The translations under genes were made by a program, and so were the position numbers. A DNA stretch of 59,181 nucleotides, counting the filler, from Porpidia crustulata (lineage: Eukaryota), in the NCBI GenBank assembly GCA_964255105.1. It is 2 parts of 2 records of this genome, joined end to end, with 100 filler letters (N's around TTAATTAATTAA, not from the genome) between each part and the next. Parts side by side here need not be neighbours in the genome. Positions count along the whole stretch, not along the records: positions 29,886 to 59,181 come from CAXUWE010000026.1; 1 more part is not named here. One strand, 5' to 3'. Shown here one piece after another: positions 3,115 to 57,473 of the stretch; position 1 is the first letter of the stretch, and every line of letters begins with the position of its first letter. Below the pieces are notes generated by a model. The model was given only the letters and a program-made list of their open reading frames with translations. It did no database searches and was not told the DNA's origin.

Positions 3115-4021
<907 letters not shown>

Positions 4022-4502
4022 GACTTAGCTCTGTAGGACTTCTGCAGACTGTGAATTGTTTTTCAGGCCTTGTTATCTGTTATTGGCGTCCAGAATCGAT
4101 AATATAGGTGAACGTCACAGCCTCTTGGTCCGAAGGATCTGATACCTCAATGTCATGGATCTGATATCAATCATTTACTGTCCTGGAATAATAAACCATA
4201 TAAAATTTAAAAGCATGTTGTGAACCCCGATGATTCCTTGTCAAGATTCGTATCTATGATTTTGCACTTGATAAGCACGCGAACAGTGAAAAAAGCCGAA
4301 CCGCAAATGTCGAGCTCCCGTCCACATCATTAAACTTGCTACTGCAATTTTGAAGATATTGTTCATAATCAACCGTTCTATCCTTATCATCTATACTTTT
4401 TTTTCCTGCCCGCGCGGTAGACGCTAGCGGCTCTGGGTAGATCGGTAGGTATCATAAGGTAAGGTATCTTGGTGGTAATATGACACGCCTCGACGTATCC
4501 AG

Positions 4503-4508
4503 ACGCGT
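4503..4508. promoter_or_regulatory. MCB-like element ACGCGT upstream of ATR/MEC1
   Basis: Perfect ACGCGT ~55 bp before the ATG of a DNA-checkpoint gene. It is a single 6-mer and could be chance. Confidence 0.3.
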
Positions 4509-4561
4509 CCCCCGGCCGTGAGTGAAAGTCGTCGGTGGCAACAATACATTAATAAATTATT

Positions 4562-35496: not shown

Positions 35497-36001
35497 TGTA
35501 TGTATGCGTATTCGGACGGAAGGTTATGTAAACCGATTGATAGAGACTGGAAGGACGTGTAATTTCGAAATTCGAGTTGGTTGAGGTTCAATTCTACCGT
35601 AAAGTATGTCCTTTGGGGCCTCTCTGGTGTGATATTTGGCGAATCTCAGTTCAATTGTAGCCACAGAAGTAGAAGTCCATTTCAAAGGGCCATCCTTTAT
35701 ACGCCACGTAGGAACTATGTAGTTGTAGCGATTGGTGAGGTGAGGAGAGATATCGTGTTGTCACTCAAATAATCACGATGTAAACAGAGACTCCTCAGGC
35801 TCGTAAATTGCAAGGGTACGGTTTAGCGCCGGAAATCGGAAATATGGCTCTGGTTTCTTGAGGAACGCGAGACCGTACAGCACCAAACTCCATGCATCAA
35901 TCACCAAGGAATGATAGATGTCCTCGAGCAAAATGCTTTCATCGGAGTAAATTTTTCACCGGCGTGCAGTCGTGGTTCAGGATCAAGTCTATTGAGTCTC
36001 A

Positions 36002-37156
36002 ATGGCTCGTATCAGAGGCTTAGATCCTCGCCAAAAACCGCCCGAGTCTGTAAAGGCCGTTTACAAACATTACGAAAAGCTTACGGCTGAAAGGATTGAT
36101 AGAGACGCTGAGGTCGTCGATTTTGTGCGCGGTCTCAATTGTCCGCAGAGAAGTAAAATTACCAAAGTCGGAAATATGACAGGCTGCAAATTGGAGAACT
36201 CTGGCTCTCGCATTAGCATTGGAGAAGCGTCAGAGAGCGACTATGTTTCGGTTCCAGTGTATCAGCATGAAGGATTACCAGGTGAGAGCCGATACGATCT
36301 ATGGACCCGAGTGTTTGGATTTGATGATGCAGGCCTACACTTAATACCCTCCTTGTTCTCTCAGGAAATGCAACAAGATCTACTGTCATGTTTGATGCAT
36401 GAGGTTCTGGCTGACGAGAGGCACACGAACAATCTGCATTTGCACTATCGAATCCCGTACCATGCTACTCATGACGAGAAAGAAAGTGACCCGCTTCTAG
36501 GGCAAATATCATTCAATGATCACTGTGAGAACGGTGCCTCATTCTTTAACATTCCTCCAGAGTCTCGTGAATCCTTCATTCCCCTTGACCCAAGTATTCA
36601 CAAGCCATTGTCGATCTCTCAATTTCTGCACAAGAAGTTACGATGGATAACTCTAGGAGGCCAGTACGACTGGACTGCAAAAGCATATCCTGCGGAAGAA
36701 CCTCCGGCTTTCCCCAAGAAGATTGTAGCTTTGATAGGCAATCTTTTCCCTAACATGAAACCCGAAGCAGCTATTATGAATGTATATACTCCAGGCGACA
36801 CATTGAGTGTGCATCGAGACGTGAGCGAATACTCTGACAAGGGTCTTGTCAGCATCAGTCTTGGCTGCGACGGAGTGTTCGTTATAGGCCTGGTGGAGGG
36901 AAAGAATAGGAGTCAAAGCTGTCTCACGATTCGCCTTCGGTCAGGCGATGCAATCTATATGAGCGGGCCGTCACGCTTCGCTTGGCACGGCGTCCCCAAG
37001 ATTATTCCAGATACTTGTCCGCAATGGCTGAGAGATTGGCCTGCGATTTCGCCATCCAAACCTTTGAGAGGTGGCCAGCCGAGCAGGTACGAAGCTTGGC
37101 GAGGCTGGACATCAACAAAGCGGATCAACCTGAATGTGCGACAAATGAAAGATTGA
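36002..37156 (+). CDS. AlkB/ALKBH1 (Abh1)-type Fe(II)/2-oxoglutarate dioxygenase
   Basis: KLRWITLGGQYDW, YTPGDTLSVHRDVSE (HxD), LRSGDAIYMSG.SRFAWHGV and RINLNVRQ. Probable in-frame intron at ~36282-36332. Confidence 0.9.
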   Translation: MARIRGLDPRQKPPESVKAVYKHYEKLTAERIDRDAEVVDFVRGLNCPQRSKITKVGNMTGCKLENSGSRISIGEASESDYVSVPVYQHEGLPGESRYDLWTRVFGFDDAGLHLIPSLFSQEMQQDLLSCLMHEVLADERHTNNLHLHYRIPYHATHDEKESDPLLGQISFNDHCENGASFFNIPPESRESFIPLDPSIHKPLSISQFLHKKLRWITLGGQYDWTAKAYPAEEPPAFPKKIVALIGNLFPNMKPEAAIMNVYTPGDTLSVHRDVSEYSDKGLVSISLGCDGVFVIGLVEGKNRSQSCLTIRLRSGDAIYMSGPSRFAWHGVPKIIPDTCPQWLRDWPAISPSKPLRGGQPSRYEAWRGWTSTKRINLNVRQMKD

Positions 37157-37433: not shown

Positions 37434-38933
37434 TCAGGTTGAAAAAACTCTCGATTTCACGCTGTGCCAAGACTCCCTAACAGGTTTGGGAACCTCATGA
37501 ATTGTACAGTATCCACATTTCCCCACTCCTTGGAGCGACTTCCTGGAAGGTTCCATGAGGCATCCCTGTTCCGGTCCGAAGAATGTCGTTTGTGGTTCGC
37601 TGGCTGGAGAGAGATCTTCTAACCGAGAGACCTGCGCTGAAGATGTAACCTTGCTGATACTGATGCTGGTGGTAGTTTCCTCGTGGAGAAAGCTCAACGA
37701 CAAGCCGTCATCGGCCATGCGGCGGAAGTCGTCGGCGGACTCGCTTGTATATTGCAGAAGATCGAGCCCCTCAAAAACGATAGGAGAGTGGAGCTTGGCC
37801 AGTTCGGTAACATTGTCGAGACTGAAACGTGTAATGGGCGTGCCCTTTGGTACTTGAACCTTGAGTCCGAAAGGATACAGGGGTTCCAATTTAACCTGCT
37901 GGTTAGATTTGACCGTTTCATTGGCATCAATAACGCTGTACATTGGTACGTCGGCACACAAAAATTTGAGGCCAAGCTCATCCTCACAAATCTTATAAGA
38001 CACATCACTGTCCGTTGGCTTGCGACCGAGGCTCAAAGAGACATTCGTAATATCCAGATAGGGAGTGCTGTGCCAAGGAGTCACGGGAAACGTGCTATAA
38101 CGGTTGTGAGGCAACAAGGCCACTGAGATTTTGCGAGTATTATCACTCATATGGATCGATAGACGAATGTGTAACGGGGACTTGCTGGCCACCAAGGCGG
38201 AAAAGGCCTTGCCACGTTCAATCATGCCACGCGCCACCCTAGAATTGTACTTCTTGGCAGCACTCTTGCCCATACCCTTCTCGCGAAAGACTGTCGCCAA
38301 ATCCAATTCTAGGAATTTCATATAGCCTCGATACGTTAAAAGGGCATTATTGTCCTTCTTAATGTCTTCATTAAAGTCATACCCTGAGGGAAGGAAAGAG
38401 ACAAAAAGACGTTCCTTGAGCTCTCCAATGCGAGTTGCATACTCTTCAGCAGTAGTCGGTGGGCTCTCGCTACCAACCAATTCAAAGATGTCCGTGAATC
38501 TCAAGTGTTTCAGTCCCAGACTCGCGGTGATACGGCGAAGACCCTTTGCATAGTCGAAAACTTCCTCGTCGGAAACGCCCAGCAAGTCATTGTAACAAAC
38601 ACCGTCGCTAACAATAGTGACGTGGCCACCAGGCGGATATACTTGCTCAATGCCTGCACCGATAGAGTTGAAATGTTGGAGAGACATGCGTTCACCCACG
38701 TCTGGATCGGGGCCGAGGACCTTGGATTCATGATTGGGGCTCTTGAATGGATACGCAGGCACCACCATATTTACGGGTTCTTGTTTAGCAACAAAGCTGC
38801 GCAGTGTGTCCAACATTTTGGGTTCCATCACGTCTTTATACTTATCGCGTGGGCCGCTGATACGGTACGAGGCAATGACCTCAGCGATGCGCTCAACCTG
38901 AGCCTCATCGACGACCGGTCTCGTTGTCGTCAT
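37434..38933 (-). CDS. Isocyanide synthase (Dit1/PvcA family) with a truncated, degenerate TauD-like C-terminus; intronless
   Basis: [51 protein letters not shown] and TPWH are PvcA/Dit1 motifs. The start could instead be 39050 or 39053. Confidence 0.92.
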
Positions 38934-41317
38934 ATTTGAAGTCTTGAAGAAGAGTGTCTTGGTGACACTGAGGCGGGATGGGCCCAACGCCTGAGGAGGC
39001 TCGACAGCCCAAGTCTCAAAGCTGGACGTAACTGTAATGGTGTTGGACATCATAATGGCTCGTTATGATGACGAGGAAGAGGATTGTTGAAGTGGTAATG
39101 AAACAACAACGAGAAGAATCAGAAGTTGGATACCAACACTCATGGGAGGTAAAAGTGGTGCATCTGGCCGAGTACACACTATACTATAAAAATACCAGCC
39201 ATCTTACGGCCTCGTGCGCCTTGCAGTCTACCATGTGGCTTCCTCTCGTGTTCCTTGCATTCTACCCTGTGGCCCGCCTTGTATTCTTTACAATCTACCC
39301 CGTGGCTGTGTCCGATTGAACCAGTGTAAGAGATCACGTTATTCCGCGGTGACCGTAAGCTCCGCGGGCGTCTAATCGCTCGGGGCTTCCATTTTTGGAC
39401 GCTCAAAAGTGAATGGTTTCTCCTCCGGTCTTGGTCCGGCCCCTTTCCGCATTCTCATAAATAGATTCTAAAATTATTCTTTTCTCACAACAGTGAAGCG
39501 AATCTCCAGACTAAGACAACTTCATTGGAGCTCCGCCGCAATTGACCGTTCTTCACTGAACATCTCCGATCACCATTTTCGCCCCCTCTTTGAGAACGAT
39601 CAGCTCCATGTTCGTATCTGGAAGGAAAATCTACCATAGCATGAACATTGCACACAAAAATCATCCAAGTTGACGTTCTTAGGTCTTACAAAGGTGATCT
39701 TGTGGAGATCGATGACTGTGAACGATGGCTTGCCACAGAGACATTCGGCGTGCAAACGGAGCAGACAAAAGCACTTTTCCAAGAAGGCGATGTTCTTAGA
39801 AGAGTAGGGAAGCAAAGAATATCAATAGCTAGTAAACACCACAGCAGCAAAAAGTACTTCATAATGTCGACAGCAGATCTACTTCAAATTTTACTCCGGT
39901 GATTGTGAGCTGAGAAGTACACCACAAGCAAAGCCATGAACCTGTCTTTGCAATTCCTATTTTCGTCGATCTTTCACCGTTTCTGCAGCCAGATACTTAG
40001 CAAAGCAAGAGTAGGGCAAGCGGAGATGGCATTCCTTCCAATATCGCCGTTCAAAAAATCTTCGGTCATGTGATTCCCAATCTAAAGGAGAATTTTGATT
40101 GAGAAACGATGGGATATAAATATCTAGAGATCGAGATGGAGACTGCTTGTGGATATTTGGTCACCCAATAAAATACAATTTGAACGCTGTTGACAGGAGC
40201 ACAAACAGCTTATAGGCGCATGCTGGATCCCAATAAGATACGACTCTACCTATTGTGTAGACTCTCATACCCCTGTTTCATCCACTGTCATCTGGACTCA
40301 ACGCGATTACCGCGGACACTCGTCAGCCTTCTCGTACGCGCCTTGCACCCTTAGAAGAACATCGAGTCTGTTACCTGAGCATCAACCACGAGGTGCGGCT
40401 ATGAGGCTGAAGTGTCGGACCAGCTAGCGCACAAGATTTGAGCCAAGCAAGGAAAGCAAAACCAATAATGGTGAGGGGATCAAGCGGTAACGACGAGGGA
40501 CTGGCGCAAGGCGCTTCTCAAGGACGAGGCGCAGACCTTCCCTCTCTTTTGGTCATGAGGTAGTAGTGATGCTTAGGCCAAGCATTGTCACGGGGCGCGC
40601 CCTCATCGGAAAGCGAGAAATCACGCCATTCGTCGGGTGGTGAACTTTTACCAGTATACGTGATATAGCAAAGTGTGAATAAAGCCTCCGTCGTGACTAC
40701 GAAAGTAGTACTTTGCACTCGCATTGTAGAGGAAATGTGCTCGCGTCTTGACGGGCTTCTCTAATGTCGAGGGACAGAGAAGCTCATATAAGCGTGGGTG
40801 TATGACAGCTGTATGTTGGACTGCTTACGAACCAATACGCCAAGGAGATCGGACAGACAACGTTCTGTCACGCAAGCCTTTCAATTGCGAACTATGTATG
40901 TTGAAAAGCATTCCTTTGATACAGTAATGGCCTGGACAACTTCTGAAATTTGAGCGAGGTACTTTCAGGTATATATTAAGCGCGCTTTGTCATTTACGCC
41001 GACTCCAAATGCTTGTCCGCGGGATGCTGACCTGCGTAGTCCGCGTATATGCGGTCGGCAATCCTTGCCTCCGACGACAGTGAATATGCTGGCGGTGAGC
41101 AATCAAACAATAAAGCCATGGAAATTCGATTTCGACGGGTGAATGCTCGGTGGCGCAGCTGATTGGGCTGGACAGGGCAAGACATAATAATAGGAAGTCA
41201 TGCCATTCATCTTGCATCCCCCCCTCCCCCCTCCAACACTCTGGAAAGCGCACACGACAGTCGGTAGGATACTATCTCTCCATCTACTTTCTCACTTACA
41301 CTTGTGCTCCATTCATC

Positions 41318-43378
41318 ATGGCTATCACAGCACCTACACCAAGGCACACGTTCACTGAGCGTGCTGCAGCGGGCAACCTGAACGACGCTGAGATCCTCAA
41401 CTCCAACAATGCAGCTGGTTCGGATCCGCCCGAAGACTCTGACGTTGTCGTCGCCGGTGGTGGCATGCATGGTCTCATCTACGCCATCCACTCGGCCAAG
41501 TACAAGCCAGGCAACCTCAAGATCTCACTCATGGAAAAGAGCGCCAAGCCAGGATACAAGATCGGCGAGAGCACCCTGCCTCTGTTCTCGTTGTGGTGCA
41601 AGATGCACGGTCTCACAGGCGAGTATCTCCTGCGTCTCTTCGGCCTCAAGGACGGACTGTCCTTCTACTTCCTCGATCGGGAGAACCAAGGCAAGTACAC
41701 CGACTTTGCCAGCAATGGCACGCCAGGCCTCTTTCTGAGCGGCTTCCAAATCGAGCGGACCATCAGTGAGCTTCTCTTGACAGTCCTTGCACAACGGAGT
41801 GGTGTCAATGTATACCATGGAAGGCAAGTCGACTTTAATGCCAGTAAGATTCAAGGTGGTGTCGAGAGTAATAAAGTTGGAATTGCCCAGGGCAAGCATG
41901 ACGGCAAGCCGGCGGTAACGATTGACTCTTCGCTCCTTGTTGATGCGACAGGCCGATTCCGCCAGCTAGCTTCGAAGAACGCTCCTATCCACCGTTTCGA
42001 TGGTTGGAATTACGACGGCTTCTGGGCTTATTTCACGTGCCCGAAAGATGAGAGCAAGATTCCTCTCCGTTTCTACGAAGGTCTACACACCAACCACCTA
42101 TGCTTTCCCGAAGGTTGGGCCTGGGTCATTCGCTTCGCCTCGTGGGAAGGTAGCCCGATTGCCAACTTGATGGACATGATTTCGTATTTGCTCGACTGTG
42201 CCGAGGCTGGGATTCCGGGCGACCAAGTCCCAAGCTCAGAGGAGCTCGCTAAGATGTTTGGACTCAAGTTCCGTTGGCTGACAAGCATTGGCTTTGCCGT
42301 CCGTAACGACGTCAAGTACCCCGAAGACATGTCTCAATACGGAACCAAGGAAGGGGAGCGTAAATTCAACTACTTTGTCCAAAAGTACGATGTCATCAAG
42401 GAGTTCATGACCAACTTCGAGCTGATCGATGACCTCTACGGCCCCAACACGACTTGGTTCATCCGCAAGTCGTTGACATATCAGTCTCCCGTCGTCTCCG
42501 GCCCAGGCTGGCTCGCCATTGGCGACGCATGCGGTTTCACCAACCCGCTCCATTCCCCTGGCATCACGGCCGCCATGTCCACCTCAACGTACGCCGCCGA
42601 GCTCACGCACACGGCCCTCGAGACCGCCCAGAGAGCCGACAACGCCGAGGCCGCCGAGCTCTCGATCCGCAAAACCCTGGCCCCCTACGACGACTTTACC
42701 AAGCGCCTGTACCCGGCGCTCAACCAGATGAACCGCTTCAACTACGTCTGCTTCCGGGAGCCCCGCCTTGGCCCGCAGGTCTCCTGTCTCTGGCAATTCT
42801 TCGCCGGCATCGGCATCCCCGACTGGCAGCTGATCCGACAAGACTACAACCTGACCTTCCAGACCTACGTCCCGCACTCGGTCAACTGGGCCTGGGGCTC
42901 CATGGTCCCCGAATACGACGCCGTCGCCCGCAAAGCCATCAAGCTGATCGCGCCCATCCCACTCGCCGACCCCGTCCCCGACGCCGTCGTGCGCGAGCTC
43001 CTCGCGTTCTCGAACCGCATCAAGGACACCGCCGTGGCGTCGAACCGCTTCAACTTCCGCTGGGACGGCCTGCTGCGCTACTACGACATCTGCCTCAACT
43101 ACAGCGAGGCCAAGACGACCAAGGACAAGTTCGCCCGCCAGTGCGCCGGCTGCGCGTCCTGGCTCGTGCTCCGGCCCGACTGGCGCAAGTGCTACTCGTG
43201 CGGCTTGGAGCGCTCGGCCGAGGAGGCCGCCATCACGTGGAATCCGCCGTTAGCGGTGGATGAGGTTAAGGCGCTCGTGAGGGCGTCGGACGCCAAGCCC
43301 GCTGCGAGGCGGGAGAGGGAGGAAGCCGCGGATGCGGCGCCTGCTTTTGCTGCACTACCGACGGAGGTGGCTGTGTAG
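41318..43378 (+). CDS. Zn-binding flavin-dependent halogenase, MalA-like; intronless
   Basis: GGGMHG Rossmann motif, YKIGES, LFGLKDGL (catalytic Lys), DATGR, the halogenase WxWxI motif as WAWVI, GDACGFTNPLHSPGI and a C-terminal CAGC-x12-CYSC. By recall it is collinear with malbrancheamide halogenase MalA along its length. Confidence 0.9.
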   Translation: MAITAPTPRHTFTERAAAGNLNDAEILNSNNAAGSDPPEDSDVVVAGGGMHGLIYAIHSAKYKPGNLKISLMEKSAKPGYKIGESTLPLFSLWCKMHGLTGEYLLRLFGLKDGLSFYFLDRENQGKYTDFASNGTPGLFLSGFQIERTISELLLTVLAQRSGVNVYHGRQVDFNASKIQGGVESNKVGIAQGKHDGKPAVTIDSSLLVDATGRFRQLASKNAPIHRFDGWNYDGFWAYFTCPKDESKIPLRFYEGLHTNHLCFPEGWAWVIRFASWEGSPIANLMDMISYLLDCAEAGIPGDQVPSSEELAKMFGLKFRWLTSIGFAVRNDVKYPEDMSQYGTKEGERKFNYFVQKYDVIKEFMTNFELIDDLYGPNTTWFIRKSLTYQSPVVSGPGWLAIGDACGFTNPLHSPGITAAMSTSTYAAELTHTALETAQRADNAEAAELSIRKTLAPYDDFTKRLYPALNQMNRFNYVCFREPRLGPQVSCLWQFFAGIGIPDWQLIRQDYNLTFQTYVPHSVNWAWGSMVPEYDAVARKAIKLIAPIPLADPVPDAVVRELLAFSNRIKDTAVASNRFNFRWDGLLRYYDICLNYSEAKTTKDKFARQCAGCASWLVLRPDWRKCYSCGLERSAEEAAITWNPPLAVDEVKALVRASDAKPAARREREEAADAAPAFAALPTEVAV

Positions 43379-43751: not shown

Positions 43752-46310
43752 TCACATGCATTGCCGATGCAGCGCCAATTTATTCCTCGCCAGCGGCGAT
43801 GTCGCTTGCAACGCCTCCAACTCGCTCATGACGGTATTGACATGCCACTGCAGCACGCTGACCTTCTCCCGCCCGAACCGGCCCGTCCACGAGCCACTCC
43901 CGTTGCCGTTCGCGGCGTGATAAGGGGGAAAGCTCTCCACCGAGCGTTCGGCATATGGGTAAAAGTCGTTCGCGGAGGCGCTGCCGGGAGACGAGTTGAC
44001 CGCCGCTGCCCTCGACATCGGTCTGGAGGCGCTGGCGTTGGCATTGGCGTTGGCGTGCTTATTCGGTATGAGCAGGCCCAGCCCGTCGGCGGATTGCGAC
44101 GCGTGGAGCAGAACGTGACCGACGAGGGCGGCCGACGACGCGGGCTGGATGACGCGCCGGAAGGTGCCCGGGTAGGGGCGTTTTTCGCCGTTGGCGCCGC
44201 TGGCGAGGTCGATGACCATGCTCCGGGCGCCTTCACCGCCGAGGTTGACCATGTGCGGGGCGCCCATGCCGATGTTGCGGCACTGGGAGAGGACGAGGGT
44301 GCAGGCGTCGATGCAGGCGTCCATGCACATCATGCGCAAGGGCCCGGCGGCGGTGGCGTCGTGCATCAGGTGGAAGGCTTCGTGGCGGAAGAGTTTGAAG
44401 CGGATGAGACCGAGCTCGAGACTGAGGTGGACGTTTTGCACTTGGAGCGCTCGTTGGAGGGAGATCCGGTGCTCGTTTGACGTGTGGCTGCTGCCGCTTC
44501 CGTTGGCTCGCCCTCTTCCGTTGGCTCGCCCTCTTCCGTTAGCACTGCCGTTGACGTTATTGCTTGGACCGCTGTATTCTCCTCCCCGTCCGGCACAACC
44601 ACCGAGCAATTGATAGAAACCCAGCTTGTTACCTAGCGCATCCAGCTCAGAGCAAAGCTCGGCGGCTTGAGCAGGCAAGATGGGACCAGGGCGGATGATG
44701 CAATCCTCTGCCCTACGCGAGAGGCTGGCCAAGGTTAGCGCATATTCTAAAAAGTATCTAGTTTGACTCAATCTCTCCAAGTGTTCCGGTTCCGTTACAG
44801 GCGAGTGCGTTCCATCATCAGGAACCCCTGGAATCTTTGACGGAGGATCGCTGTGCATTTCGGGACGAATGAAGTAGCTGCCATTATGGTAAACGCCAGG
44901 TGACGTCCAGTCAAGAACACATAAAAACGACCAAAGCTGCCATCGCCATTCACGTTCTTCGAGTGGCACATCGTCATCGCAGGGCGAATCCAAAGAAGCT
45001 TCGGCAGCGGAAGAAATCGTATCAAGGTGCAGCTTGAGGTATTCGGAAGGCGCTGCAAACGACTGGGCGGCTAGAAGCAGTAGAATCTTGATGGCCACAA
45101 TCCTCAATAGTAAAGTCGGGGCATAAGTTGAAGCATGCCCTGCTTGTTGGAAATTCGTAAGAGAGTCGGCTGGAAAAGTCTGTGCTCTTGGTAACGCAGA
45201 CGTGGTCGCCTCAGCGCCAGAGGTGAAAGAGTCCAAGTCTAAGTCTGTAATCAAGGACCTTGCCTTTCTCCACAGATCTCTCGCAAACGCGTCAATATCG
45301 ATACGAGCAATGCCGAGCTCCTGTGCTTTGACCGCGTCAAGATTTACAGCAGCAAGACTTACCCATGCAAGGATAAGTGACACCTTGACGTCAAAATGAT
45401 TAAGAGAAACGGGCGAGCCACTATTCTCCACTCCTTTCCGTACTTGCTCCACTTCTTCGAGTTCAGAGACCAATTGGTAAACGTCAATAAATCCAATCAG
45501 CGATGCAGAAGCGTGAAGCTAACGACATTGAACGCCAAAGCAAGCTGTAAGCCAAACTACTGTTCTTTTGATTACACAGCAAAGTTAAACTCACGAATTG
45601 CGAAAACAAGCCCCACAATAAAGGACTTTCAGGAAGCAAGGCAGCAATTCGAGACTGCGTCCATCGTTTCCGATCAGGACTTTGTTGTGGAGAATCTGAT
45701 CCTGGAGATAACATAGAACACATGGTTAGAATGGGCTTCTTCCAGTAGACACTGGTAGAAGAACAACGAAGGGAGCTCGCACTACACCTACCAAGTAATG
45801 GACTTATATCTTGCGGCGTGCTCGGTTTGGCCGAAAGGCCTTCCAAAGATGCGGCTCTTTCCTTATATCGGATAGTCTCAATCAACTCTAAATTAGACGT
45901 TTTGAGCTCCTTGACTACTTCGGTGAGCTTCAAAATTAAGTTTGGAAGCTGTTCGAGGCTTTCTCGATTGTTTTTCCTACTCGAACCGAATGGCACGCCA
46001 GGATCAGTTGTCAAAAATCATTGAACCAAAAATGCCAAGCTCGGACGAGACGTAATTACTCTGGTCTCTGGCCTTCCTCCCAGGTACACGATTGACCTTC
46101 GCCTCGTGCCTGACAAGCGCCACAGGGATCGGAACGATCGCATTTAAGCTTCCGCCGTCTGCACGAGTGGCAGCTTAAAATCTTCTTGTCTTTACCCGTC
46201 TTCTGTGGCGGTTCAGGCTGTGGAGGAGCCGAGGGCCCCTGCGAATGACTGTTGGTGCTAGATGACGATGCTTCTGGAGCTCCATTAGGTACGTTTGTCT
46301 GCATCGTCAT
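43752..46310 (-). CDS. Zn(II)2Cys6 transcription factor 1
   Basis: CHSCRRRKLKCDRSDPCGACQARGEGQSC binuclear cluster and EREWRWQLWSFLCVLDW fungal-TF middle domain. Multi-exon; divergent from the MFS gene. Confidence 0.88.
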
Positions 46311-46725
46311 GTGCAGTGGTGGACTTGAGGTCTGCTTGTTTGACCAACAAGTAGTAAGGCGGATCAATGTCGGTGTTGCGGTGAGGGAGCGAGCAGGTAC
46401 CTAAGTACCTAAGAAACCCACGCGACTTCGTAAGGCTATCCTTATCTTATCTCGTATCTTAGCGCCAATCTGACGCGGAACCGTTTTGGGCTTCGGAGTC
46501 TAAGTGAGAATCCGCGGAGCTTTACAAGTCTCCGTACTTGCATACTCTACTCACGGTAGGCTTACCGTGCCGATGTCAAATCAAATCACAACAAAGTAAT
46601 TTAGGCCGGTGCCTTCAAAACGCCCACCTTCATCCCCCACACTTGATCCAACTTCATCTGGTACAGTAGATTCTTTTCCTACCGCCGGCGTCCACTTTGA
46701 TCCTCTCCACTTTGCAGAGGTCATA

Positions 46726-48330
46726 ATGTCTACTACCGGCGGATCTCCAATTCTACACGATGGAGCCCTCAGTAAAGAGGAATCAGAGCGATCCGATAAC
46801 ACCGTTGTAGGGGCTGGTGGCGCTGGCGAGCCGGACGCAATTGCTTCGCCTTCCAATTTTTCGTCTCCACTTCAAGAGGGTGTCTTTATCTTTGTCATTG
46901 GCTTGTCCCAGCTCTTTTCAGTCGGAGGTCTTGGAAATGCGGCATATTCGGTGGAAGAGATCGGTCGTTCTCTCAACGCGACCAGCAACGGACAAACGTC
47001 GTGGTTCCTGGCAGCATACTCGCTGGCCGGTGGTGTCTTTGTCTTGATCACTGGACGGCTGGGAGACCACTTCGGCCATAAGTATGTCTTCATGTTCGGA
47101 TGGTTCTGGTTGGCCATCTGGTCTCTTATCTGCGGCTTCGCACACAATGTCATCCTCTTCGACTTTGCCCGAGCAATGACTGGTATCGGCAATGGCGCCC
47201 TGGTACCCAACTCGTTTGCTCTCTTGGCGCGAGCGTTCCCGCCCTTTTCGACCAAGAAGAACATTGCATTTGCTTTTCTTGGCTTCTGCGCTCCTTCGGG
47301 TTACATCTTTGGTGGTCTCATTGGTGCTGCATTTGCTCAAAAAGTTACCTGGCAATGGGGCTTCTGGTTCTGGGCGATTGGCTCCCTATTCCTCGGCATT
47401 GCGACTTTTGTCATTGTTCCACACCGCATTGGCTCCCCATTGCCTGGACTCAGTTTCAAGCAATTTGACTACATTGGCACCTTTCTCGGCCTATCCGGTC
47501 TCATCTTCTTTGCCTTTGCATGGAATCAAGCATCTGTGGTTGGCTGGCAAGTGCCTTACACGTACGCCCTTCTCATTGTCGGCATCGTCTTCATCGTGGC
47601 CTTCGCCTATTCTCAGTCACACGCCTCGGCACCAGTCTTACCCAACACGCTCTGGACACGCAAAGGATTCTCTCCTATCGTGATAGCGATGTCTTTTGGC
47701 TGGATGTCCTTTGGCATTTTCCTTTATTACACGACCATCTTCATCCTCACAATACACAAGGAAACCCCTCTCGCTGCCGTAGCAGAAATGACCCCTCTAG
47801 TCATCGGAGGCATCTTTGCCACGGCATCGGTCGGCATTTTCATTCAAAAGGTTCCAGCTCAGTACATCTTTGGCGTTTCCATGTTCTCGTTCTTCTTCGG
47901 TAACCTAATGATGAGTTTTGCCGAGTACTCCAAAGTCTATTGGGCCTTTATCTTTCCAGCTTGCTTCTTCGTCGTCGGAGGACCGGACCTTTCCTTCGCC
48001 TCGTCTGGTATTCTCATCTCCAACGTGGTCATGCCAGAGGAGCAAGGTGTGGCCGGGTCGTTCATCTCAACGGTGGTGCAATACTCGATTGCCGTCGGCC
48101 TCGGTATTGCTGCCACGGTAGAGTCGCACGTCAATAAGGGTGGCCGCGATCTTGTTCGTGGGTATCGTGGTGCCTTCTGGCTCGGCATGGGATTTGCAGC
48201 TGTCGCCTTCTTTGTGGTTGTGATTTTTGTTCGTGATCACCGCTTCGATGGGGTGAAGAATGCCGAGAAGGAGGTCAACGGTAGTCATGACACCATTGAA
48301 GAGGCTGCAGCAGTGAAAGGCGACTTCTGA
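46726..48330 (+). CDS. MFS drug:H+ antiporter, DHA2 (Atr1-like, ~14 TMS); intronless
   Basis: SWFLAAYSL, motif A GRLGDHFGHK, ARAMTGIG, FDYIG and EEQGVAGS, with many hydrophobic segments. Confidence 0.92.
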   Translation: MSTTGGSPILHDGALSKEESERSDNTVVGAGGAGEPDAIASPSNFSSPLQEGVFIFVIGLSQLFSVGGLGNAAYSVEEIGRSLNATSNGQTSWFLAAYSLAGGVFVLITGRLGDHFGHKYVFMFGWFWLAIWSLICGFAHNVILFDFARAMTGIGNGALVPNSFALLARAFPPFSTKKNIAFAFLGFCAPSGYIFGGLIGAAFAQKVTWQWGFWFWAIGSLFLGIATFVIVPHRIGSPLPGLSFKQFDYIGTFLGLSGLIFFAFAWNQASVVGWQVPYTYALLIVGIVFIVAFAYSQSHASAPVLPNTLWTRKGFSPIVIAMSFGWMSFGIFLYYTTIFILTIHKETPLAAVAEMTPLVIGGIFATASVGIFIQKVPAQYIFGVSMFSFFFGNLMMSFAEYSKVYWAFIFPACFFVVGGPDLSFASSGILISNVVMPEEQGVAGSFISTVVQYSIAVGLGIAATVESHVNKGGRDLVRGYRGAFWLGMGFAAVAFFVVVIFVRDHRFDGVKNAEKEVNGSHDTIEEAAAVKGDF

Positions 48331-48906
48331 GATGATGTGACCTTCGGGTAGCTTACAATTTTGGTTCCATTGACCTTGTCTACACTCCGCACGACTCGAC
48401 GCTTCGTCTAGAAATAGGTTAGCTTGCAGCAACAACAAACATATTACTCTAGAATTTCCAGACAGACATGCTATGGAAATTACAACTGCCGCAACAACTT
48501 GGATCTCACGGCAGGACACCTTACACTCTTTGACATCTGAGCGTCACTCCCCAGCCACAAGAAGCCTCATTCAAAAGAGAAGCGCATATCCAATTCTGCG
48601 GCACTAGCTACTTAGTGGTCTAAGCACAATTGGCGCACGTCATCGCCGTAACATCCCCTCCCCCTCAATGGGACGGCTAACCGACTTCATGAGGCTAGCC
48701 CTAACCCTAGATTAGCCGTCTCTCTCTGGCTCGTATCGGCTCGGTCCGCGGACGCTACAAAACTCCACGGATTCCGGCCAAAGTCCGGTTGCTTGGCACT
48801 CTATATACATACCTTACTTGAGAGATAAGGAAGTGTGATGGTTGTTGGTACGAGTCTGAATTTGCACTTTAGATTGTGAAGTCAAAATAAGCAGAAAAGA
48901 TCAAAA

Positions 48907-49713
48907 ATGCCGACACACCGCATCCTCTCACTGGTGTACGACGGGTTCGAGGCGCTAGATCTCTTTGGGGCCCTGGGTGCCATCGTCCCACGCAGCGACT
49001 ACTACACCCTCAAGCTGGTTAATATCCACAATCTGGGTGCACCGCACGGGCTGGAATCCTCCATCAGGAATGGTATCGGCACTTTGCCCAGCCTTTCATT
49101 GGCCGAAGCGCTCAAGGAAGAGGGGCAGATTGACACCCTCTTTATCCCTGGAGGGTTCGGTATGTTGCCGTTGGTTTGGGAGCCCTTTTCGCTGCAGCAG
49201 ATTGGTCAGCTTGTCGACCGTGCCGCCAACGTCTTTACCGTCTGCACTGGATCCATCCTGTTGGCTGCCACCGGTCGGCTCGACGGTCGCAAGGCAACCA
49301 CAAACAAGCGCCTTTATGAGGAGATAACACCAAAGTGTACGTGTTGTGGGTCACCGTAGCTGTCGCTTTCGTTCACATTGACCTTACATCTAGACCCTGG
49401 CGTCCAATGGCAACAGCGTGCTCGCTGGGTACAAGAGGGCAAGTTTTTGACCTCTTCGGGGGTGACGGCGGGTATTGATGCCGCTTTTGCTTTCATATCC
49501 AACACTTGGGTTTCCCCCGAGGATCGTAAAGCCAACCCCACTCCACAACAAGCAAGTGCCGAGGGAGATGCAACGGCTATCCCAGGCTTCAACAAAGAAA
49601 AAGCACTGGGACATGCCCACTTTGTTGCATTTGGTTTGGAATACCGATGGCACATGGATCCCGCTGACGATCCATTTGTCGATTCGCCTAAAGGCACTAA
49701 TGGTACTCTGTAA
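48907..49713 (+). CDS. DJ-1/PfpI (ThiJ) family protein, isocyanide-hydratase-like
   Basis: YDGFEALDLFG, LFIPGG, nucleophile elbow VCTGS, GRLDGRKATTNK and RWVQEGKFLTSSGVTAGIDA. Intron 49337-49393. Confidence 0.88.
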
Positions 49714-49988: not shown

Positions 49989-52775
49989 CTACAGGGAGGA
50001 GCGGCTACCGTCACCCGAGGCATAGGTTAATAGAAACTTGGCTGCTACATATGCATCAGCGCTTGAAGGTGTCGTTGCAGCTTCGCTTCTCCCGCTCAAC
50101 TTGGTAGGTCCGCTCGCTATAGACGAAGGTGACGCATGTATGACCCGAGTGCCATCGATATTGCTATACACATCGCCAAACTCCGGTGTTCCGAAGCTGC
50201 TCAATGACTGCGCCGCGCCGGAAGACTGCCTAAGTGGTACCAAGCCGGATAGGTTTTGCATGTCTGCTGTAGCCGAAAAATAACCATTCTCGGTGGGAGA
50301 TTTAGGAGTAGCGATCTCCAAAGATTGCCAAAAGTCGTAGCCCGGATCGTTGGAGAGCATTGGTAGCACATCAAAGTCTTGGAATCCACCAGTAGTGGTT
50401 GCTAAAGGCATAGACATGTCCAGAGCGAATATCGAGTTTAGATTGGCTTCCTCCGCTGTCGTACTTGCGTTTAGGGTATTTCCTTGAAGACTGTCCAAGG
50501 TATCCATGACTTTGTTCTTGAGTGATTTTCTTGCATTGCTGTCAGATCTTACTCCTTGTCCTCCTTGTCCTCCTGGACGGTTTCCTGTTGATTTTGCTCC
50601 ATTGCCTTCTTCGTTGTTGTCGGACTCCTCTTCCTCTAGCCTCATCAAGGCTTCGAGTGCAAGAAAACTTCGCCGAGTAGAGGCTTTGTCTTGTTCTAAT
50701 TGAGGGTCTTGTAGGGACGGTGGACCTTCTAAACCGTTTCGAGTCCGTAATAGCTCGATAGCTTCCCGGATCTTGTCTCTTGTCATTAATCGACTTAATT
50801 GGGCACCTGAACAATCTACACCTTTGTGCTTGGATGAGAATAGCAAATCAAGGATCAGTACAATAGCGGCGTTGAACAGCTGGGTTTCGCTAGTGGACAG
50901 AGAACCACAAACAGCGCACCGTGCTTGTATCTGCCCCTGAGAGCTGATAATGTTCTGTGCTAGCAGCTGACAGGATGAGCGGCCATCCTGTGACGAGAGA
51001 CTAGCCCGATGAAGTCTCAAGAAAAGACTCCATAGCTGCTGATGTAACATCCATCGCTGTACAGGTATTGCTGCCATGGGACCTGTTGAAGTGAGTCCCA
51101 TGGTGCTTCCCAGTCTAAAGTAAGACGGCAATCCAGCAACAAAGTTTTCATACTGTTTGTTCAGATGGTGTCGCATTTTTGCACCTTCAGTTGTCTTTTC
51201 TTGTCGTGGAGCTTGGCTAAAAGGACCGCGCAAGTCGATGGACTCGCGCGCGAAAGCTGCTATTTCTAAAGCGTGGACTGTATATGAGAGCATAGTGAAC
51301 TCGGATCGAGGCCGCTCAGTAATGTAGCCATGGACATTGATCGCCAATGTTGTGGGACAGAGATCGTCATCATTGATATGCAACGGCACCCGAGTGTTGA
51401 ACTGTGAGGGATGAATACTATAGTAATCCAGCGCTTGTCCGCGTGACCAATCTCGCATCACAAGTGCCCACCTATATTTCAAACAAATCAGAGATCAATC
51501 TCTAAAGCGAGGGTTTTGCGTTCAAATGACTTACCAGATACGAACACCGATTTCTGTTCGTACGTGAGGCGGCTCCGTCGACATTAACGGGCTATCTTCA
51601 GGGAAAGAGATGGGCGATGCAGACGCTACCAATTTTGCGTCACCCAGTCGATGTAAACCTAGTTTCTGGGCTCCAGAAATTGCGTTGACCAAGATAGCAT
51701 CGAGCGCTAAGGATCCCCCTTGGCCTTGGAGCAAAAGCATGATGGCAGCTTGTAGACTGGCAATTGAACCACAAAATAGTGAAACCTCTCCTTGAAGGCA
51801 ACGCAAGGCAAGTGACCTCCATGTCCTGGAGTGTACATCTGACGCTCGAACTTCTTCCACATAAAGAGTCAGAGGTGAAGGAGACCAGCCAAGTAGAGAT
51901 GGTGTGGGATGGAAGGCGAGAGCGAGCACGAGCTATAAAAGAGAACATGAGCGTACGCTTCATGTGCGGTATAGTGGAATACGCACCGCCAAGAGGTGAC
52001 AGGCAATTGCATCCATGGAAATCGTATTAGACAGGGCCGTGACTTGTGCTTCTGACGAAGCAAGACTCAAGCAGCCACAAAATGTTTCTGCATGCTTCAT
52101 AAATGTCGGTGTGTGTACAATGTTGCCCAGAGGACCTTGACAACGGGTAACGAAAACTTGGTAGAGGAGGCGAATCATGTCTAAACCGGGCATAGCATCG
52201 ACAATTTCTCGAATCAATGCAAGTTGTACACCTTGTCTTTGTGGATTATTGGCATTTAACCAGTACACATTGGGGTACTCTGGTGCCACATAGGATAATG
52301 TCTGTTTAGAGACAGCGGACGGGTAGGCGTTGGTGCGAGATGTTCCATCGACAAAGTCTTCGAGGACCTGCGCAGCCTCATCTGCTTCTGTTCCCTGGTT
52401 TTCCAATGCATTGCTGATAAAACAGACACATGTCAATGAGAGGTTCGTGAGGAGCCATCTTTGAGCAGAACTCACGTCTCCGGGTCCCTTCTACCACTGT
52501 TATCCGTCTTTGCCCTTTTTACCCTTGGCTGACGTTCGTCTTTGGTACAAAGATGGCCGACATTGCGCTTGACACATTCCATCTATATGAACAAGATCAG
52601 TCACAAAGTTGATGGTGCATCGAAACCGGCGACATACACATGGTTCCTCTCTGTCACATTTCAGCTTGGATGCTCTGCATCGAGCACATGACTGAGTAAA
52701 CTTGCGCACACCAGACTCCGAACTGAAAGAGGCTTTGGTGCTGGCGTGCCCGTCCTTTGAACTGTGGTCAACCAT
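49989..52775 (-). CDS. Zn(II)2Cys6 transcription factor 2
   Basis: CARCRASKLKCDREEPC|MECVKRNVGHLC, AQKLGLHRLG, EIGVRIW|WALVMRDW and PLHINDDDL fungal-TF domain. Multi-exon; divergent from ICS-TauD. Confidence 0.88.
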
Positions 52776-53638
52776 CGTTGGTGGGCCATGAGTATTGGGC
52801 AAGTGCGGCGTTCCCGTTCAGCTAGCAAGAGGCCGGACGAGCCGAAGGACGCATGGATGAATTAAGTCCATGGACATGTACATAGTAGCACGGGTTGGAT
52901 ATGGTAGAGTAGTTCGTGGATAGTGTTATTGGGGCTTTGCCCTGATTGGTGGACAGCCTAGATAGATGGATATTCACACTAACTGACTTTGCTCATTCAT
53001 TCAACCTTGATCTCAACGTGTCTATTATATCATGAAGCATAAGTAACCTAATCATCTAGATCTACGACGCTACGACTTGAATTTCAATTCAGACGGTTCT
53101 ATATGGTTTAAAGATAAATTCGAAATCCATGAGTGACGTTGCTCATCAAGCAATGCCCTGGTCTATGAATAACCGACCTATCCATAGAAACACCCGTCTG
53201 AGCTGTGAATGGAAGTTATCTAAGAGTTTTGTGCAATATGTGACATGTGCATCGTCCGCTGCTGATCAGGTGCCAAATGTGCGACCCAAACCCGCACATA
53301 AATCCACCTCCGTCGGAGTCCGTGTGTGGCTATACAGCGATTCTACCAACTCCGCCGCCTCCGATTCAATATTGATGGAAGAGAGTATGAAAGCATACTC
53401 GGACGGAGGAATAATTCACGCTCGGATCTCCTCATGACTACACCGTAAGCGTCTGAGTGGTGCGGAGCAACGTGAAGTGTGATCGAGAACCCTCTTTCGT
53501 GTCTGAGGAGAAGTGTCAAGTACTACTGACATCTCAAGAGATAATAATGAGCTAAGACGAAGACATGACCCTCCTGAATCAAATTTGAGTATCGATCCTT
53601 TTCTTCCTCAATATCTCCCTACAATCTTTCTCGACAGC

Positions 53639-55573
53639 ATGCCTTCCGCAACCTACATTCCTCCTACAGAGACCCAAGTCTCCAAGATCCTTTCCATCAT
53701 CTCGGCCTACCGCCACCGTTCAGTCAACGTCCCAGACCGCTTTGCCAAATTTGTTCCACAGCTCCAGAAGCAATTAGCCGATACTGTCTCCAAGAAGGAG
53801 CCTGTGAGTTTCGTCTTGCCGGCTTTTCCTTTCAAGGCACCAGCCGAGGACAATAAGAGCAAGACCCTAGGCTCGTTGCCTGATAAGGCGGAAGAAATTG
53901 CTTTGCAAACGCTCGATGGGTTTGCCGATTCCATTGCCGAAATCTACGAGGGTGGCGCCAAAGTTGTGATTGTATCGGATGCTTCCGTCTATGGAGGTAG
54001 AGAAAGCATAGTATCCCTTTTGAAAATGATCGAGTTGCCAACACTGCTGTATAGACATTCTACAAGTCTCAGACGCCGACGCTTTTGCTTACCAACACGA
54101 ATTGCGAAAGCTTGCCTCGTCCCTTGATCTCAAGCACCTCGAATTTGTACGTCCAGGTACGCTAGCCGGCATCGTTCCCAATGATGCACAGATGCTCGGG
54201 GAGTACTCTACCCAGGTACAACAAACTCGCAATCTTCTCGATGGCCCTCTTGCTCAACAAATTGAGGCAAGCGAGGATGAAAATGTGCAAGCAACGAGTA
54301 AGCACTACGATACGGCTCTTCCAAAAAATGAAGATCCAGAGGCTTTCAAGGCCGCAATGCTGAGGCGAGGAAAGGTACAAGCTTCGTATTGATAGCCAGT
54401 CATATATTTGCATGTTGCTGATACTATACACTGCTTACTCAACAGGCCTACGCCAAGCTAATTGCTTCGACATCACGATCGTCTATCCGTCTGTCCATCC
54501 ACGAGTCGAACAACGTCGGCAAAATAACTCTTGATCTCTTTCCTCCATCGACCAACCTAAGCTTTCTCACACCGTGGCATGGGGCCGTCGCGATCCTTGC
54601 GGATGCAAGCGTGCGTGTCGTCGATGCATCGACAGTAGACAAGGTCAAATTCGACGTTATAACCAATGCTCAAGGACAACCTTGGCTGCTACGTGAAAAA
54701 TCTGACCTCTTCTACTTCCCCGGCATGATACTGGACTTTGAACCGCTCTACCCATGTGGTATGCTTGTCAAGCCGAGGGAAGGCCACGATCCCTATAAGT
54801 TCGAGGATGTGGACATGCAGCGCGTGCGCCGCCTTGCCCTTTCTACTGCACCCTTACTTCTTCGAGGGTTCACCATGAAGGTGCAAAAAGAAGTCTTCCG
54901 CGCCAAAGCTGGCGAGCTGGGCGAAATTCAAATGTGGCCGTTCGGCGATATTCTCGAGGTTCGGGAGAACGCCAGCTTTAACATGAACAACGTTCTCACC
55001 AACGAAGCCATGCCTTTCCACTACGACGGCGTTTTCAAGACAATCAAGGACGAAACGACCGGCGAACCGATTTCCGTGCCGCCGCTGTTCCAAATGTTCC
55101 GTAACCGTGCCGCCGACCAGCAAGTCGGCGGCCTGACCCTCTTCTCATCATCCCGCAACCTCCTCGCTCTCCTCGGCCCAGACACTATCCCTCTCACCGA
55201 CCTGCGCAAACTCAAATGGAAAACCTTCACCGCCGTCAACGAAGCCTTCGGCGGCACTGAGCTGCTCCTACCCTTCATCGCCTCCCACCCGGAAACGGGC
55301 GCCGACACCTTTCGCTTCCACGAGCCCTGGCCCGCCAGCAAGTGCATTGGCGCCACCAGCGAACCAACCCTCATCGAGGTGCCGGGCCTGCCCGATGCCG
55401 AGAGCGTGGTGCTGTGCGACAGACTGACCGCGCTCATGTACGACCGCCGGGTGGTGCTGCGTCACCAGTGGAGCGAGGGAGATTTCATCTTCAACGACAA
55501 CGCCACGACGCACCATACGCGGACGGCGTTTGAGAGCGGTCATCGGGAACTTTGGCGCGTGCACGTTAACTAG
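53639..55573 (+). CDS. Isocyanide synthase-TauD/PvcB Fe(II)/2OG dioxygenase fusion (XanB-like architecture)
   Basis: ICS motifs VLPAFPFKAP, LGSLPDKAEE, IVSD, IRLSIH and TPWH, then TauD motifs LLLRGF, MPFHYDG (HxD), GGLTLF and HQWSEGDFIFNDN..HHTR. Introns 53997-54054 and 54375-54445. Confidence 0.92.
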
Positions 55574-56444: not shown

Positions 56445-57473
56445 TCAGCCACGTGACCCTCCCCTGATCCCGCCTTTTCCTACCACCGCGGGTTTCCGCT
56501 GCCTGGATCTACTCACCCCGGACGAAAACGTTTGCGACGAGGTTTCGGGACGGTCATTCCACGGGGGGAACGTCTTTTGTTTTTTGTTCGCGATGCTTTC
56601 GAGGTGGCCGTGACCGTCGTGCGGGTACTCGCAGCCGGGATAGCAGCCTTCGCGGCCGCGCTTGCCAGTGGGGCTGGATTGCCCGGACTCGTCGCTGGTG
56701 TGGAGGGCAAACGGGTGTTGCTCTTCGAGCCAGGTGAAACTGCCGTCGTCGAGGCCGGTTGTTGTCACGCAGGGTCTGGCGGACGTGTTTGCGGGTGCGC
56801 TGGTGGGATCGAAGGGTAGGGCGGAGTAGAAATTAGACAGGAGCTCAGTGAACGTGCCAAGGCTGTCGATGTCGGGGTCCAAGAGGTTGTTCAGAGGAGA
56901 TGGTACTGGGCTTGTGGTTCCCACGGAGCCGGAAACGACTGAGGTGGTGGTGGTGGCAGTGGGGGATACGACTACGTTTTCTGGATCGCGAGGGAGGCTG
57001 TATTTCTGCATCTGCAGAGTCTCTGAAGGTGGCAGTGTCTGGTTGATGTCGAGAAAAGATTGCTCAGAGCTGTAAGCGCATTCTTGCATTATATTACCGG
57101 GCGTATCCGCAGGCTGGCGTTGTTGCCAGCGCTCTGCGGCCCATGCGACCCATGAGGAATCCATGTCGCGTGGAGTCAAGCCAGAGACGTTGCCTTGTTG
57201 CTTGTGATTGGTGAATGATCGGCCATTGCTGGAGTCGTCTTAGGTGGCGGAAAGCAAAGCAAAGTAACTTGTAGCGCTACTGCGGGAGCGCCGCGGTGTA
57301 CCGTCGCCGGTGTTCGCTGGCGATTGGTAGAGCGACGACGAGGCGGAGCTCGACGACGATGTGCCGACCATTGAACCAGGTTTGTTCCGTCGGCTGAGTG
57401 CTAGCCAATGAACCCATTTCGAATCCGGATCCTTTCCTCTCGGTGTATATTGTCCGCCGGTAGGATATTGCAT
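56445..57473 (-). CDS. Hypothetical low-complexity (S/T/P-rich) protein; gene structure uncertain
   Basis: A 244-codon GC-rich ORF plus an upstream 77-codon ORF, possibly joined by an intron near 57230-57280. No recognisable domain. Confidence 0.3.

Follow-up and report, generated by a model that had tools for sequence, protein, structure and literature searches.

MalA of Malbranchea aurantiaca and MalA′ of M. graminicola (PDB 5WGR and mutants) are iterative, late-stage dichlorinases of premalbrancheamide. MalA is the only characterised member of its halogenase family, of which a 2022 review counts 277 uncharacterised analogues in fungal genomes (PMC9144378). The mal genes include those for the non-ribosomal peptide synthetase (NRPS) MalG, the prenyltransferases MalB and MalE, and MalC and MalF (PMC11433161). 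In Aspergillus fumigatus, the ‘4G’ cluster is described as comprising icsA (AFUA_4G01370), which encodes a single-domain isocyanide synthase (ICS), and icsB (AFUA_4G01420), which encodes an ICS-dioxygenase, together with C6 regulators, transporters and ThiJ/PfpI homologs of isocyanide hydratases (Lim et al., 2018). Here we analyse a stretch of 59,181 nt from Porpidia crustulata (GCA_964255105.1; the whole stretch is called the window below), in which positions 29,886-59,181 come from CAXUWE010000026.1 and a MalA-type halogenase gene is flanked by two ICS genes.

We consider it somewhat better than an even bet that this gene encodes a working two-component MalA-type halogenase with a tailoring role in a conserved isocyanide cluster that has two ICS genes and corresponds to the icsA/icsB locus, itself uncharacterised. 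Since the halogenase is intact and lies in a conserved isocyanide cluster that also occurs in A. fumigatus, the cluster probably makes a still-unknown halogenated isocyanide.

The halogenase and its substrate pocket

The halogenase open reading frame (ORF) at 41318..43378 on the plus strand, the place given in a first-pass annotation of this DNA, is intronless and runs from an ATG through 686 codons to a stop, with no internal stop codon. A phmmer search against all PDB chain sequences returned MalA′ in five entries, wild type and mutants together, all with E=0 and scores of 1049-1056 bits, a match far beyond chance that covers the full length including the C-terminal domain (query residues 5-661 against chain residues 2-649). 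The first PDB match beyond MalA′ has E=1.6e-11, and the remaining matches are partial, at E-values of 1e-11 or weaker. The top-ranked entry, 5WGV, is the C112S/C128S mutant of MalA′, and comes first because the query itself has Ser at MalA position 112 (position 128 is Ala, not Ser). By BLASTP, the protein shares 433 of 664 positions (65% identity) with P0042, a Malbranchea aurantiaca record with Asp at position 494, and the biggest gap in that alignment, of 7 residues, immediately follows the residue-494 position. Pfam recognises the N-terminal Trp_halogenase part only (residues 42-116, E=8.6e-13). Comparison with an 87%-identical relative in a metagenome contig (locus L002) gives a ratio of nonsynonymous to synonymous substitution rates (dN/dS) of 0.114 over 685 codons, which indicates purifying selection. 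Judged from its sequence, the protein is a member of the MalA-type Cys4 (Zn-binding) flavin-dependent halogenase family. Its residues and motifs, placed on an alignment of 58 family sequences, are as follows.

41456..41473, plus strand: FAD-binding GxGxxG motif (GGGMHG, G47-G52), read from the translation; G47 and G49 do not vary among the 58 aligned sequences
41648-41650, plus strand: Lys111 in GLKDG, equivalent to the catalytic Lys108 of MalA; Lys in 53/58 aligned homologs
41660-41662, plus strand: Ser115 (GLSFYF), replacing MalA Cys112, by alignment
41708-41710, plus strand: Ala131 (DFASNG), replacing MalA Cys128, by alignment
41711-41713, plus strand: Ser132, equivalent to MalA Ser129 and kept, by alignment
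42086-42088, plus strand: His257, equivalent to MalA His253 and kept, by alignment
42116..42130, plus strand: WxWxI motif W267-A-W269-V-I271 (in GWAWVIR); W267 and W269 at 42116-42124 correspond to MalA W263 and W265
42812..42847, plus strand: pocket loop G499-Y510, in which Gly499 aligns with MalA Glu494 and precedes 7 residues absent from MalA
43142-43201, plus strand: Cys609, 612, 625 and 628, a putative Zn site equivalent to MalA Cys597, 600, 613 and 616; all four present in 57/58 homologs

Alignment with MalA and MalA′ bears out the comparison that the first-pass annotation had drawn, namely that the active-site Ser and His are kept, two Cys are replaced and the Glu segment is replaced. 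Every residue it named is also found where it was placed, from the Lys of GLKDG, GLSFYF, DFASNG and WAWVI to the four Cys at 43142-43201 and the stretch AGIGIPDWQLIRQD, which starts at 42803. The protein resembles MalA in its GxGxxG motif, the catalytic Lys, a WxWxI motif followed by Arg instead of Pro, Ser129, His253, Phe489 and the four C-terminal Cys (MalA numbering). It differs from MalA in having Gly for Glu494 and a following loop that is 7 residues longer, Ser for Cys112, Ala for Cys128 and Leu for Asp252. The pocket is therefore not identical to that of MalA, where Glu494 is reported to lie near the indole N-H, with E494D weakly active and E494Q inactive (PMC8407142), and the catalytic Lys is retained.

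The altered pocket that had been proposed stands as far as Glu494 is concerned, but what had been taken for an insertion is the norm of the family. The long loop occurs in 56 of the 58 aligned homologs, the most distant clades included, and so it is MalA that carries a deletion. A short loop with an acidic residue at 494 was found only in MalA (P0042) and in one unnamed protein, P0052; being present in just these 2/58 members, Glu494 marks the MalA lineage and not the family. By outgroup comparison, the long loop is the ancestral state and that of MalA the derived one. The two Cys replacements are likewise real, but they are a local peculiarity that the query shares with P0008 and a few close kin, whereas Aspergillus, Penicillium and most lichen counterparts keep Cys at both positions; Eurotiales counterparts also keep Asp at MalA position 252. 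The pocket loop itself is near-invariant in the ICS-linked counterparts from Aspergillus, Penicillium, lichens, Calcarisporiella and locus L020, as would be expected of a common substrate across very distant fungi.

The suggestion that this enzyme may show the ancestral role of its family rests on outgroup comparison. ICS linkage is found in close relatives and in L020, so that an ICS neighbour is seen in both the ingroup and an outgroup lineage, and the long loop is the older state as above; the nesting of MalA among ICS-linked lineages, however, is not robust. MalA and P0052 fall inside a strongly supported group with ICS-linked sequences (Shimodaira-Hasegawa-like approximate likelihood ratio test, SH-aLRT, 100 in quick trees; 100/100 in a careful 41-row tree), but in the careful tree they are joined to the Eurotiales sequences at only 82/92 support. 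An approximately unbiased (AU) test did not reject a position of MalA and P0052 outside the other 54 ingroup rows (p-AU 0.87), and the tree built under that constraint beat the quick free tree by 26 log-likelihood units. We therefore set aside the nesting that the quick trees had suggested.

Several family members depart from the usual active site. Five Agaricales homologs (P0067, P0069, P0071, P0075 and P0109) have His for the catalytic Lys while keeping the four Cys, and in most of them the second Trp of WxWxI is Tyr; these proteins may not be halogenases. P0055 of Paramyrothecium foliicola (1009 aa) carries an extra acyltransferase domain (PF01757) and has lost all four putative Zn-site Cys, which are replaced by Val, Val, Thr and Thr.

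The two-synthase cluster and its counterparts

We scanned 33 ORFs of at least 150 aa across the whole window, and 41 smaller ORFs in 33-59 kb, against Pfam. No NRPS, prenyltransferase, polyketide synthase (PKS) or cytochrome P450 domain was found in these ORFs, nor any domain of the malbrancheamide pathway neighbours MalG, MalB, MalE, MalC and MalF, which agrees with the earlier placement of the halogenase outside an NRPS/prenylated-indole context. ICS genes lie nearby instead, in the following arrangement.

37434..39053, minus strand: ICS1, single-domain isocyanide synthase (IcsA type), intronless, 539 aa (Pfam DIT1_PvcA, E=8.1e-79)
39054..41317, no strand: shared upstream region of 2.2 kb between ICS1 and the halogenase, noncoding
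43752..46400, minus strand: TF1, Zn2Cys6 regulator of about three exons (ORF bounds; Zn_clus E=3.4e-7 in ORF 46056-46400; three pieces syntenic in relatives)
46600..48330, plus strand: MFS transporter (Pfam MFS_1, E=3.7e-30; syntenic in relatives)
48880..49359, plus strand: DJ-1/PfpI (ThiJ) protein, isocyanide-hydratase-like, at least the first exon here (Pfam DJ-1_PfpI, E=1.7e-11; syntenic in relatives)
49989..52817, minus strand: TF2, second putative Zn2Cys6 regulator (ORF bounds; weak Zn_clus in ORF 52500-52817; syntenic in relatives)
53507..55573, plus strand: ICS2, ICS-dioxygenase fusion (IcsB/XanB architecture) of three exons (Pfam DIT1_PvcA and TauD; exon map by tblastn)

ICS1 stands head-to-head with the halogenase and is divergently transcribed from it. 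Its PDB matches include an L-tyrosine/L-tryptophan isonitrile synthase family protein (9DHM, E=1.4e-27) and PvcA (3E59, E=2.5e-26), and it is 66% identical to cluster P0151, which contains ‘isocyanide synthase family protein’ records from Aspergillus section Fumigati. The dioxygenase part of ICS2 matches PIsnB (7TCL, E=5e-22) and PvcB (3EAT, E=5.2e-17). At the positions of PIsnB K107 and N188 it has Lys (55037-55039) and His (55319-55321), where PvcB has Leu and Cys; Lys and His at these two signature positions mark decarboxylating, vinyl-isonitrile-forming enzymes of the PIsnB type (PMC9467999). Identity between ICS2 and the ICS-dioxygenases of lichens, Aspergillus and Penicillium is 73-86%. 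Isonitrile hydratase InhA (6NI4, 3NON) is among the best PDB matches of the DJ-1/PfpI protein, at E=1.4e-9. The Zn_clus match of TF2 is weak (E=0.0026; 18.3 bits, under the cut-off of 21). The isocyanide substrate proposed at first pass thus fits a neighbourhood of two ICS genes and an isocyanide-hydratase-like gene, and the linkage recurs both in relatives and in a published table of ICS clusters.

Metagenome contigs scanned with the family alignment yielded 24 loci, and in L001-L011 the halogenase shares 81-87% identity with the query; these eleven look like one species sampled repeatedly and were counted as one relative. By tblastn, ICS1 is present in 9/11 of them (the exceptions are L005, which runs into a contig end, and L006, whose contig measures 2.6 kb), and TF1, the MFS transporter, DJ-1 and TF2 occur in the same order in 9/11. 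The relative's left flank holds a cation-efflux gene, a catechol dioxygenase gene and a DUF7924 gene, with no 2-oxoglutarate (2OG) oxygenase and no kinase, and since this flank is not syntenic the conserved block begins at ICS1. Homolog searches also gave an indirect proxy for linkage in the form of matching sizes of the longest contig: halogenase and ICS1 homologs agreed in 13 cases (232868, 160829, 78539, 52474, 51961, 42778, 38760, 28330, 28038, 17604, 16885, 6642 and 6068), and halogenase and ICS2 homologs in 7 (78539, 51961, 50692, 42778, 38760, 28330 and 20751).

Accession order in named genomes points the same way. L6R41_006245 (ICS2 type) adjoins L6R41_006246 (halogenase) in Letrouitia, and Q9170_003126 and Q9170_003132 are accession neighbours in Blastenia; KAJ5602939 (ICS1 type) is near KAJ5602941 in Penicillium hordei, and KAJ5738580 and KAJ5738575 are accession neighbours in P. 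malachiteum. In the more distant L020, a halogenase gene about 58% identical to the query is interrupted by introns, and about 3 kb upstream of it the opposite strand carries an ICS-TauD gene. L020 and L023 are one contig (Ga0307508_10001909) with two halogenase copies, the second at the contig end, and L019 has tandem halogenase copies at 7-998 and 3743-5868. At L003:5363-6989, the ICS1 match splits in two near residue 493-498, with the last 45 residues at 49% identity, which may be a frameshift or an assembly error. P0436, an ICS-dioxygenase filed under the fern Adiantum nelumboides and 74% identical to the ICS2 exon, is probably fungal DNA in a plant assembly.

The Aspergillus side of the comparison comes from Table S4 of Nickles et al. 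(2023), which lists Trp_halogenase (PF04820) in predicted ICS clusters at least 125 times. The first 30 of these rows comprise 14 from Aspergillus/Penicillium (E about 1e-13) and 16 from Fusarium/Verticillium (E about 5e-5), the latter being weak matches and probably other flavoproteins; the Trp_halogenase rows include A. fumigatus, A. clavatus, A. fischeri, P. polonicum and P. antarcticum. In accession order, the biosynthetic gene cluster 6_Aspergillus_fumigatus is listed with RPE65, FAA hydrolase, MFS, Zn_clus, Trp_halogenase (EAL84273.1), 3-deoxy-D-arabino-heptulosonate 7-phosphate (DAHP) synthase and glutathione S-transferase (GST), followed by a no-domain protein, DIT1_PvcA, a second no-domain protein, DJ-1_PfpI, Zn_clus, a HAD-type hydrolase and DIT1_PvcA+TauD. 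EAW25550.1 (A. fischeri), OQD71940.1 (P. polonicum) and OQD86190.1 (P. antarcticum) sit in the 90%-identity clusters P0012 and P0017, whose representatives are 82% and 77% identical, respectively, to the query halogenase. The members of P0012, the closest named relative, come from many A. fumigatus strains, from A. fischeri (EAW25550.1), P. oxalicum and A. saccharolyticus; EAL84273.1 would also belong there, going by the A. fischeri entry, and is absent among the 15 members listed. The window, like icsA/icsB, has one single-domain ICS and one ICS-dioxygenase in one locus, and this locus also holds C6 regulators, a transporter, a ThiJ/PfpI isocyanide-hydratase-like gene and a Trp_halogenase-domain gene. 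From its gene content, the Porpidia cluster is a compact counterpart of the icsA/icsB locus, with the halogenase as a regular member.

Identity to Aspergillus proteins is 82% for the halogenase (P0012/P0482), 78-81% for the ICS2 exon at 54422-55573 (P0424/P0429) but only 66-67% for ICS1; the first two values, which are unusually high between fungal classes, suggest strong constraint or horizontal spread of the cluster. GC content at third codon positions (GC3) is 0.76 in the halogenase (41318-43375), 0.69 in ICS2 exon 3 and 0.66 in DJ-1, against 0.45-0.56 in seven housekeeping ORFs of the window. In L002 (halogenase at 10001-12055), it is again highest in the halogenase (0.65) and DJ-1 (0.66). 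High GC3 could come from codon bias or from foreign origin, and together with the 82% lichen-Aspergillus identity it leaves room for horizontal spread.

Around and between these genes, the left 35 kb of the window consists of ordinary genes (DEAD helicase, ATR-type kinase, NCA2 and AAA ATPases). An AlkB-like 2OG-FeII_Oxy_2 gene at 35996-37156 (plus strand) lies tail-to-tail with ICS1. This gene and the kinase at its left were rejected as cluster members, both being missing from the relative's flank. The spacer between ICS1 and the halogenase is 67-72% identical to L002 over 39381-40634 (blastn), compared with 80-84% in coding parts. A hidden gene there was likewise rejected, with tblastx stops in every frame and six small ORFs that have no Pfam match. 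Comparison of four cluster promoters turned up no common word, with just two 8-mers present in three of the four regions and no 9-mer or 10-mer in three of four. Just past ICS2, an ORF at 56445-57239 (minus strand, 264 aa) has a GC3 of 0.67 and no significant Pfam match.

Proposed pathway and alternative readings

If the halogenase works as its family suggests, a separate flavin reductase would supply FADH2, which with O2 and chloride or bromide would yield hypohalous acid. Lys111 would capture and direct the hypohalous acid to the electrophilic halogenation of an aromatic ring in the C-terminal pocket, which the Cys4 site would brace and of which loop 499-510 would form a wall. We infer, as did the first-pass annotation, that the substrate would be smaller than that of MalA. 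ICS1 and ICS2 would make it, and it is most likely an aromatic amino-acid-derived isonitrile, a vinyl isonitrile or the corresponding formamide. An electron-rich, tyrosine-derived phenol may be favoured over an indole because the Glu that activates the indole N-H in MalA is missing, an argument by analogy from the report that phenol halogenases do not have the glutamate found in the active site of tryptophan halogenases (PMC8407142), and because the ICS2 dioxygenase resembles enzymes that act on tyrosine isonitrile. Halogenase activity, substrate, timing in the pathway and the halide used are what we infer from these genes.

We also entertain, as a tentative and rather doubtful extension, that the cluster, which occurs from A. 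fumigatus to lichen fungi, makes a ring-halogenated aromatic vinyl isocyanide or formamide and that the original job of MalA-type enzymes was isonitrile tailoring. The compound would then be the first of its halogenated kind to be assigned to an ICS cluster of fungi, and MalA would have branched off later, with 7 residues deleted from the loop and Glu494 acquired, to be taken into an NRPS indole-alkaloid pathway.

Several points weigh against a halogenase that tailors an isocyanide. Clustering is no proof of a common pathway, and the activity and product proposed for the query and its counterparts are predictions from their genes. The loci of the close relative end at TF2, so ICS2 beside the halogenase is not visible there, and the matching contig sizes are indirect. 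L013, L015 and L016, on the deepest family branch, have no ICS within 10 kb. The preference for a phenol rests on one missing residue, for which another base in the longer loop could substitute. Under the conditions of Lim et al. (2018), icsA and icsB were not expressed in A. fumigatus, and no product was assigned to them. Our literature search found no halogenated fungal isocyanide tied to this cluster.

The same cluster could be read with the halogenation at the start, so that free Tyr or Trp is halogenated first and the resulting halo-amino acid is passed on to the ICS enzymes. The whole of the clustering evidence is just as consistent with this order, and the DAHP synthase beside the Aspergillus halogenase, which hints at a dedicated aromatic amino-acid supply, points towards it, as does the description of L-tryptophan halogenases as usually acting early (PMC9144378). 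We nevertheless regard an early step as unlikely: MalA, the only characterised member, is described as acting late on a free complex substrate (PMC8407142, PMC9144378), and the glutamate that MalA requires for indole activation is missing. It is improbable, in our estimate, that the protein is not a halogenase in vivo but a flavin monooxygenase, an enzyme with another role or part of a silent relic cluster. The MalA mechanism cannot run as described without Glu494, the Aspergillus cluster was silent in the one study mentioned above, and the Agaricales members with His for the catalytic Lys indicate that not all of the family need halogenate. Lys111 and WxWxI are intact, however, and WxWxIP is thought to block monooxygenation (PMC8407142), while the dN/dS of 0.114 and the 82% identity to Aspergillus counterparts argue against decay.

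Very improbable, finally, is a halogenase that serves an unrelated pathway with the ICS genes as mere neighbours. Teloschistales lichens contain chlorinated anthraquinone pigments, whose chlorination would be the candidate role; the nearest named homologs include proteins of Teloschistales lichen fungi, and the deep branches L013, L015 and L016 have no ICS neighbours. Yet there is no PKS among the scanned ORFs, counterparts 77-82% identical and with the same loop lie in Aspergillus/Penicillium ICS loci, and ICS linkage recurs on many contigs and in an independent distant clade; our literature search found no paper on a Teloschistales halogenase.

Should the halogenase tailor an isocyanide as we propose, its product would point to a new class of halogenated isocyanides or formamides. 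Isocyanides have been linked to metal binding and to antimicrobial or pathogenesis-related activities (Lim et al., 2018; Nickles et al., 2023). Our proposal would also explain the remodelling of MalA's pocket and would offer a small-substrate, stand-alone halogenase for biocatalysis. The locus gives many uncharacterised MalA-family members a concrete context, a compact isocyanide cluster of a type that the well-studied A. fumigatus also has, where it is silent and no product of it is known. The co-occurrence of halogenase and ICS is already visible in the published Table S4 and is undiscussed in the main texts, so that the advance would lie in the interpretation; ‘halogen’ has 0 occurrences in the main texts of Lim et al. 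(2018) and Nickles et al. (2023), and ‘chlor’ has 0 in that of Lim et al. (2018). In our literature search we came across no publication that deals with a halogenase of a fungal ICS cluster, and the A. fumigatus locus names led to Lim et al. only.

Comparison with known systems

Among the fungal phenol halogenases of the Rdc2/RadH type, RadH aligns with the N-terminal FAD part of the Porpidia enzyme only (residues 38-272, E=5.8e-11), and the likeness ends at the flavin domain, enzymes of this type being without a Cys4 C-terminal domain; the Porpidia protein does not belong to them. Phenol halogenases are described as being without the tryptophan-halogenase active-site glutamate (PMC8407142), and the query is without MalA's Glu494.

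Among isocyanide systems, the A. fumigatus icsA/icsB (‘ICS4G’) locus provides a counterpart of the same domain for all seven cluster genes of the Porpidia window, and the pocket loop of its halogenase matches the query except at one variable Gly/Asp position. The two differ in gene order. The Aspergillus loci (6_Aspergillus_fumigatus and 8_Aspergillus_clavatus) have a DAHP synthase and a GST beside the halogenase and also add a HAD-type hydrolase, three genes that did not turn up in the scanned ORFs of the window, and the Aspergillus halogenases keep both Cys112 and Cys128 as well as Asp252 (MalA numbering) where the query has Ser, Ala and Leu.

The xanthocillin (xan) cluster of A. fumigatus, with the ICS-dioxygenase XanB, the isocyanide hydratase homolog XanA, the P450 XanG and the regulator XanC, has features (Lim et al., 2018) that the Porpidia cluster shows as well: ICS and dioxygenase domains fused in one protein, a ThiJ/PfpI gene resembling those of isocyanide hydratases, a regulator of fungal type and a transporter. 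The Porpidia cluster differs from it in that no P450 for dimerisation was found in the scanned ORFs, and in the addition of a single-domain ICS and a halogenase. The bacterial enzymes PIsnA/PIsnB (Photorhabdus, rhabduscin) and PvcA/PvcB (Pseudomonas) are tyrosine isonitrile enzymes, of which ICS1 matches PvcA and the ICS2 dioxygenase matches PIsnB and PvcB; unlike these bacterial systems, the Porpidia cluster joins ICS and dioxygenase domains in the single protein ICS2, and its genes are fungal, with introns.

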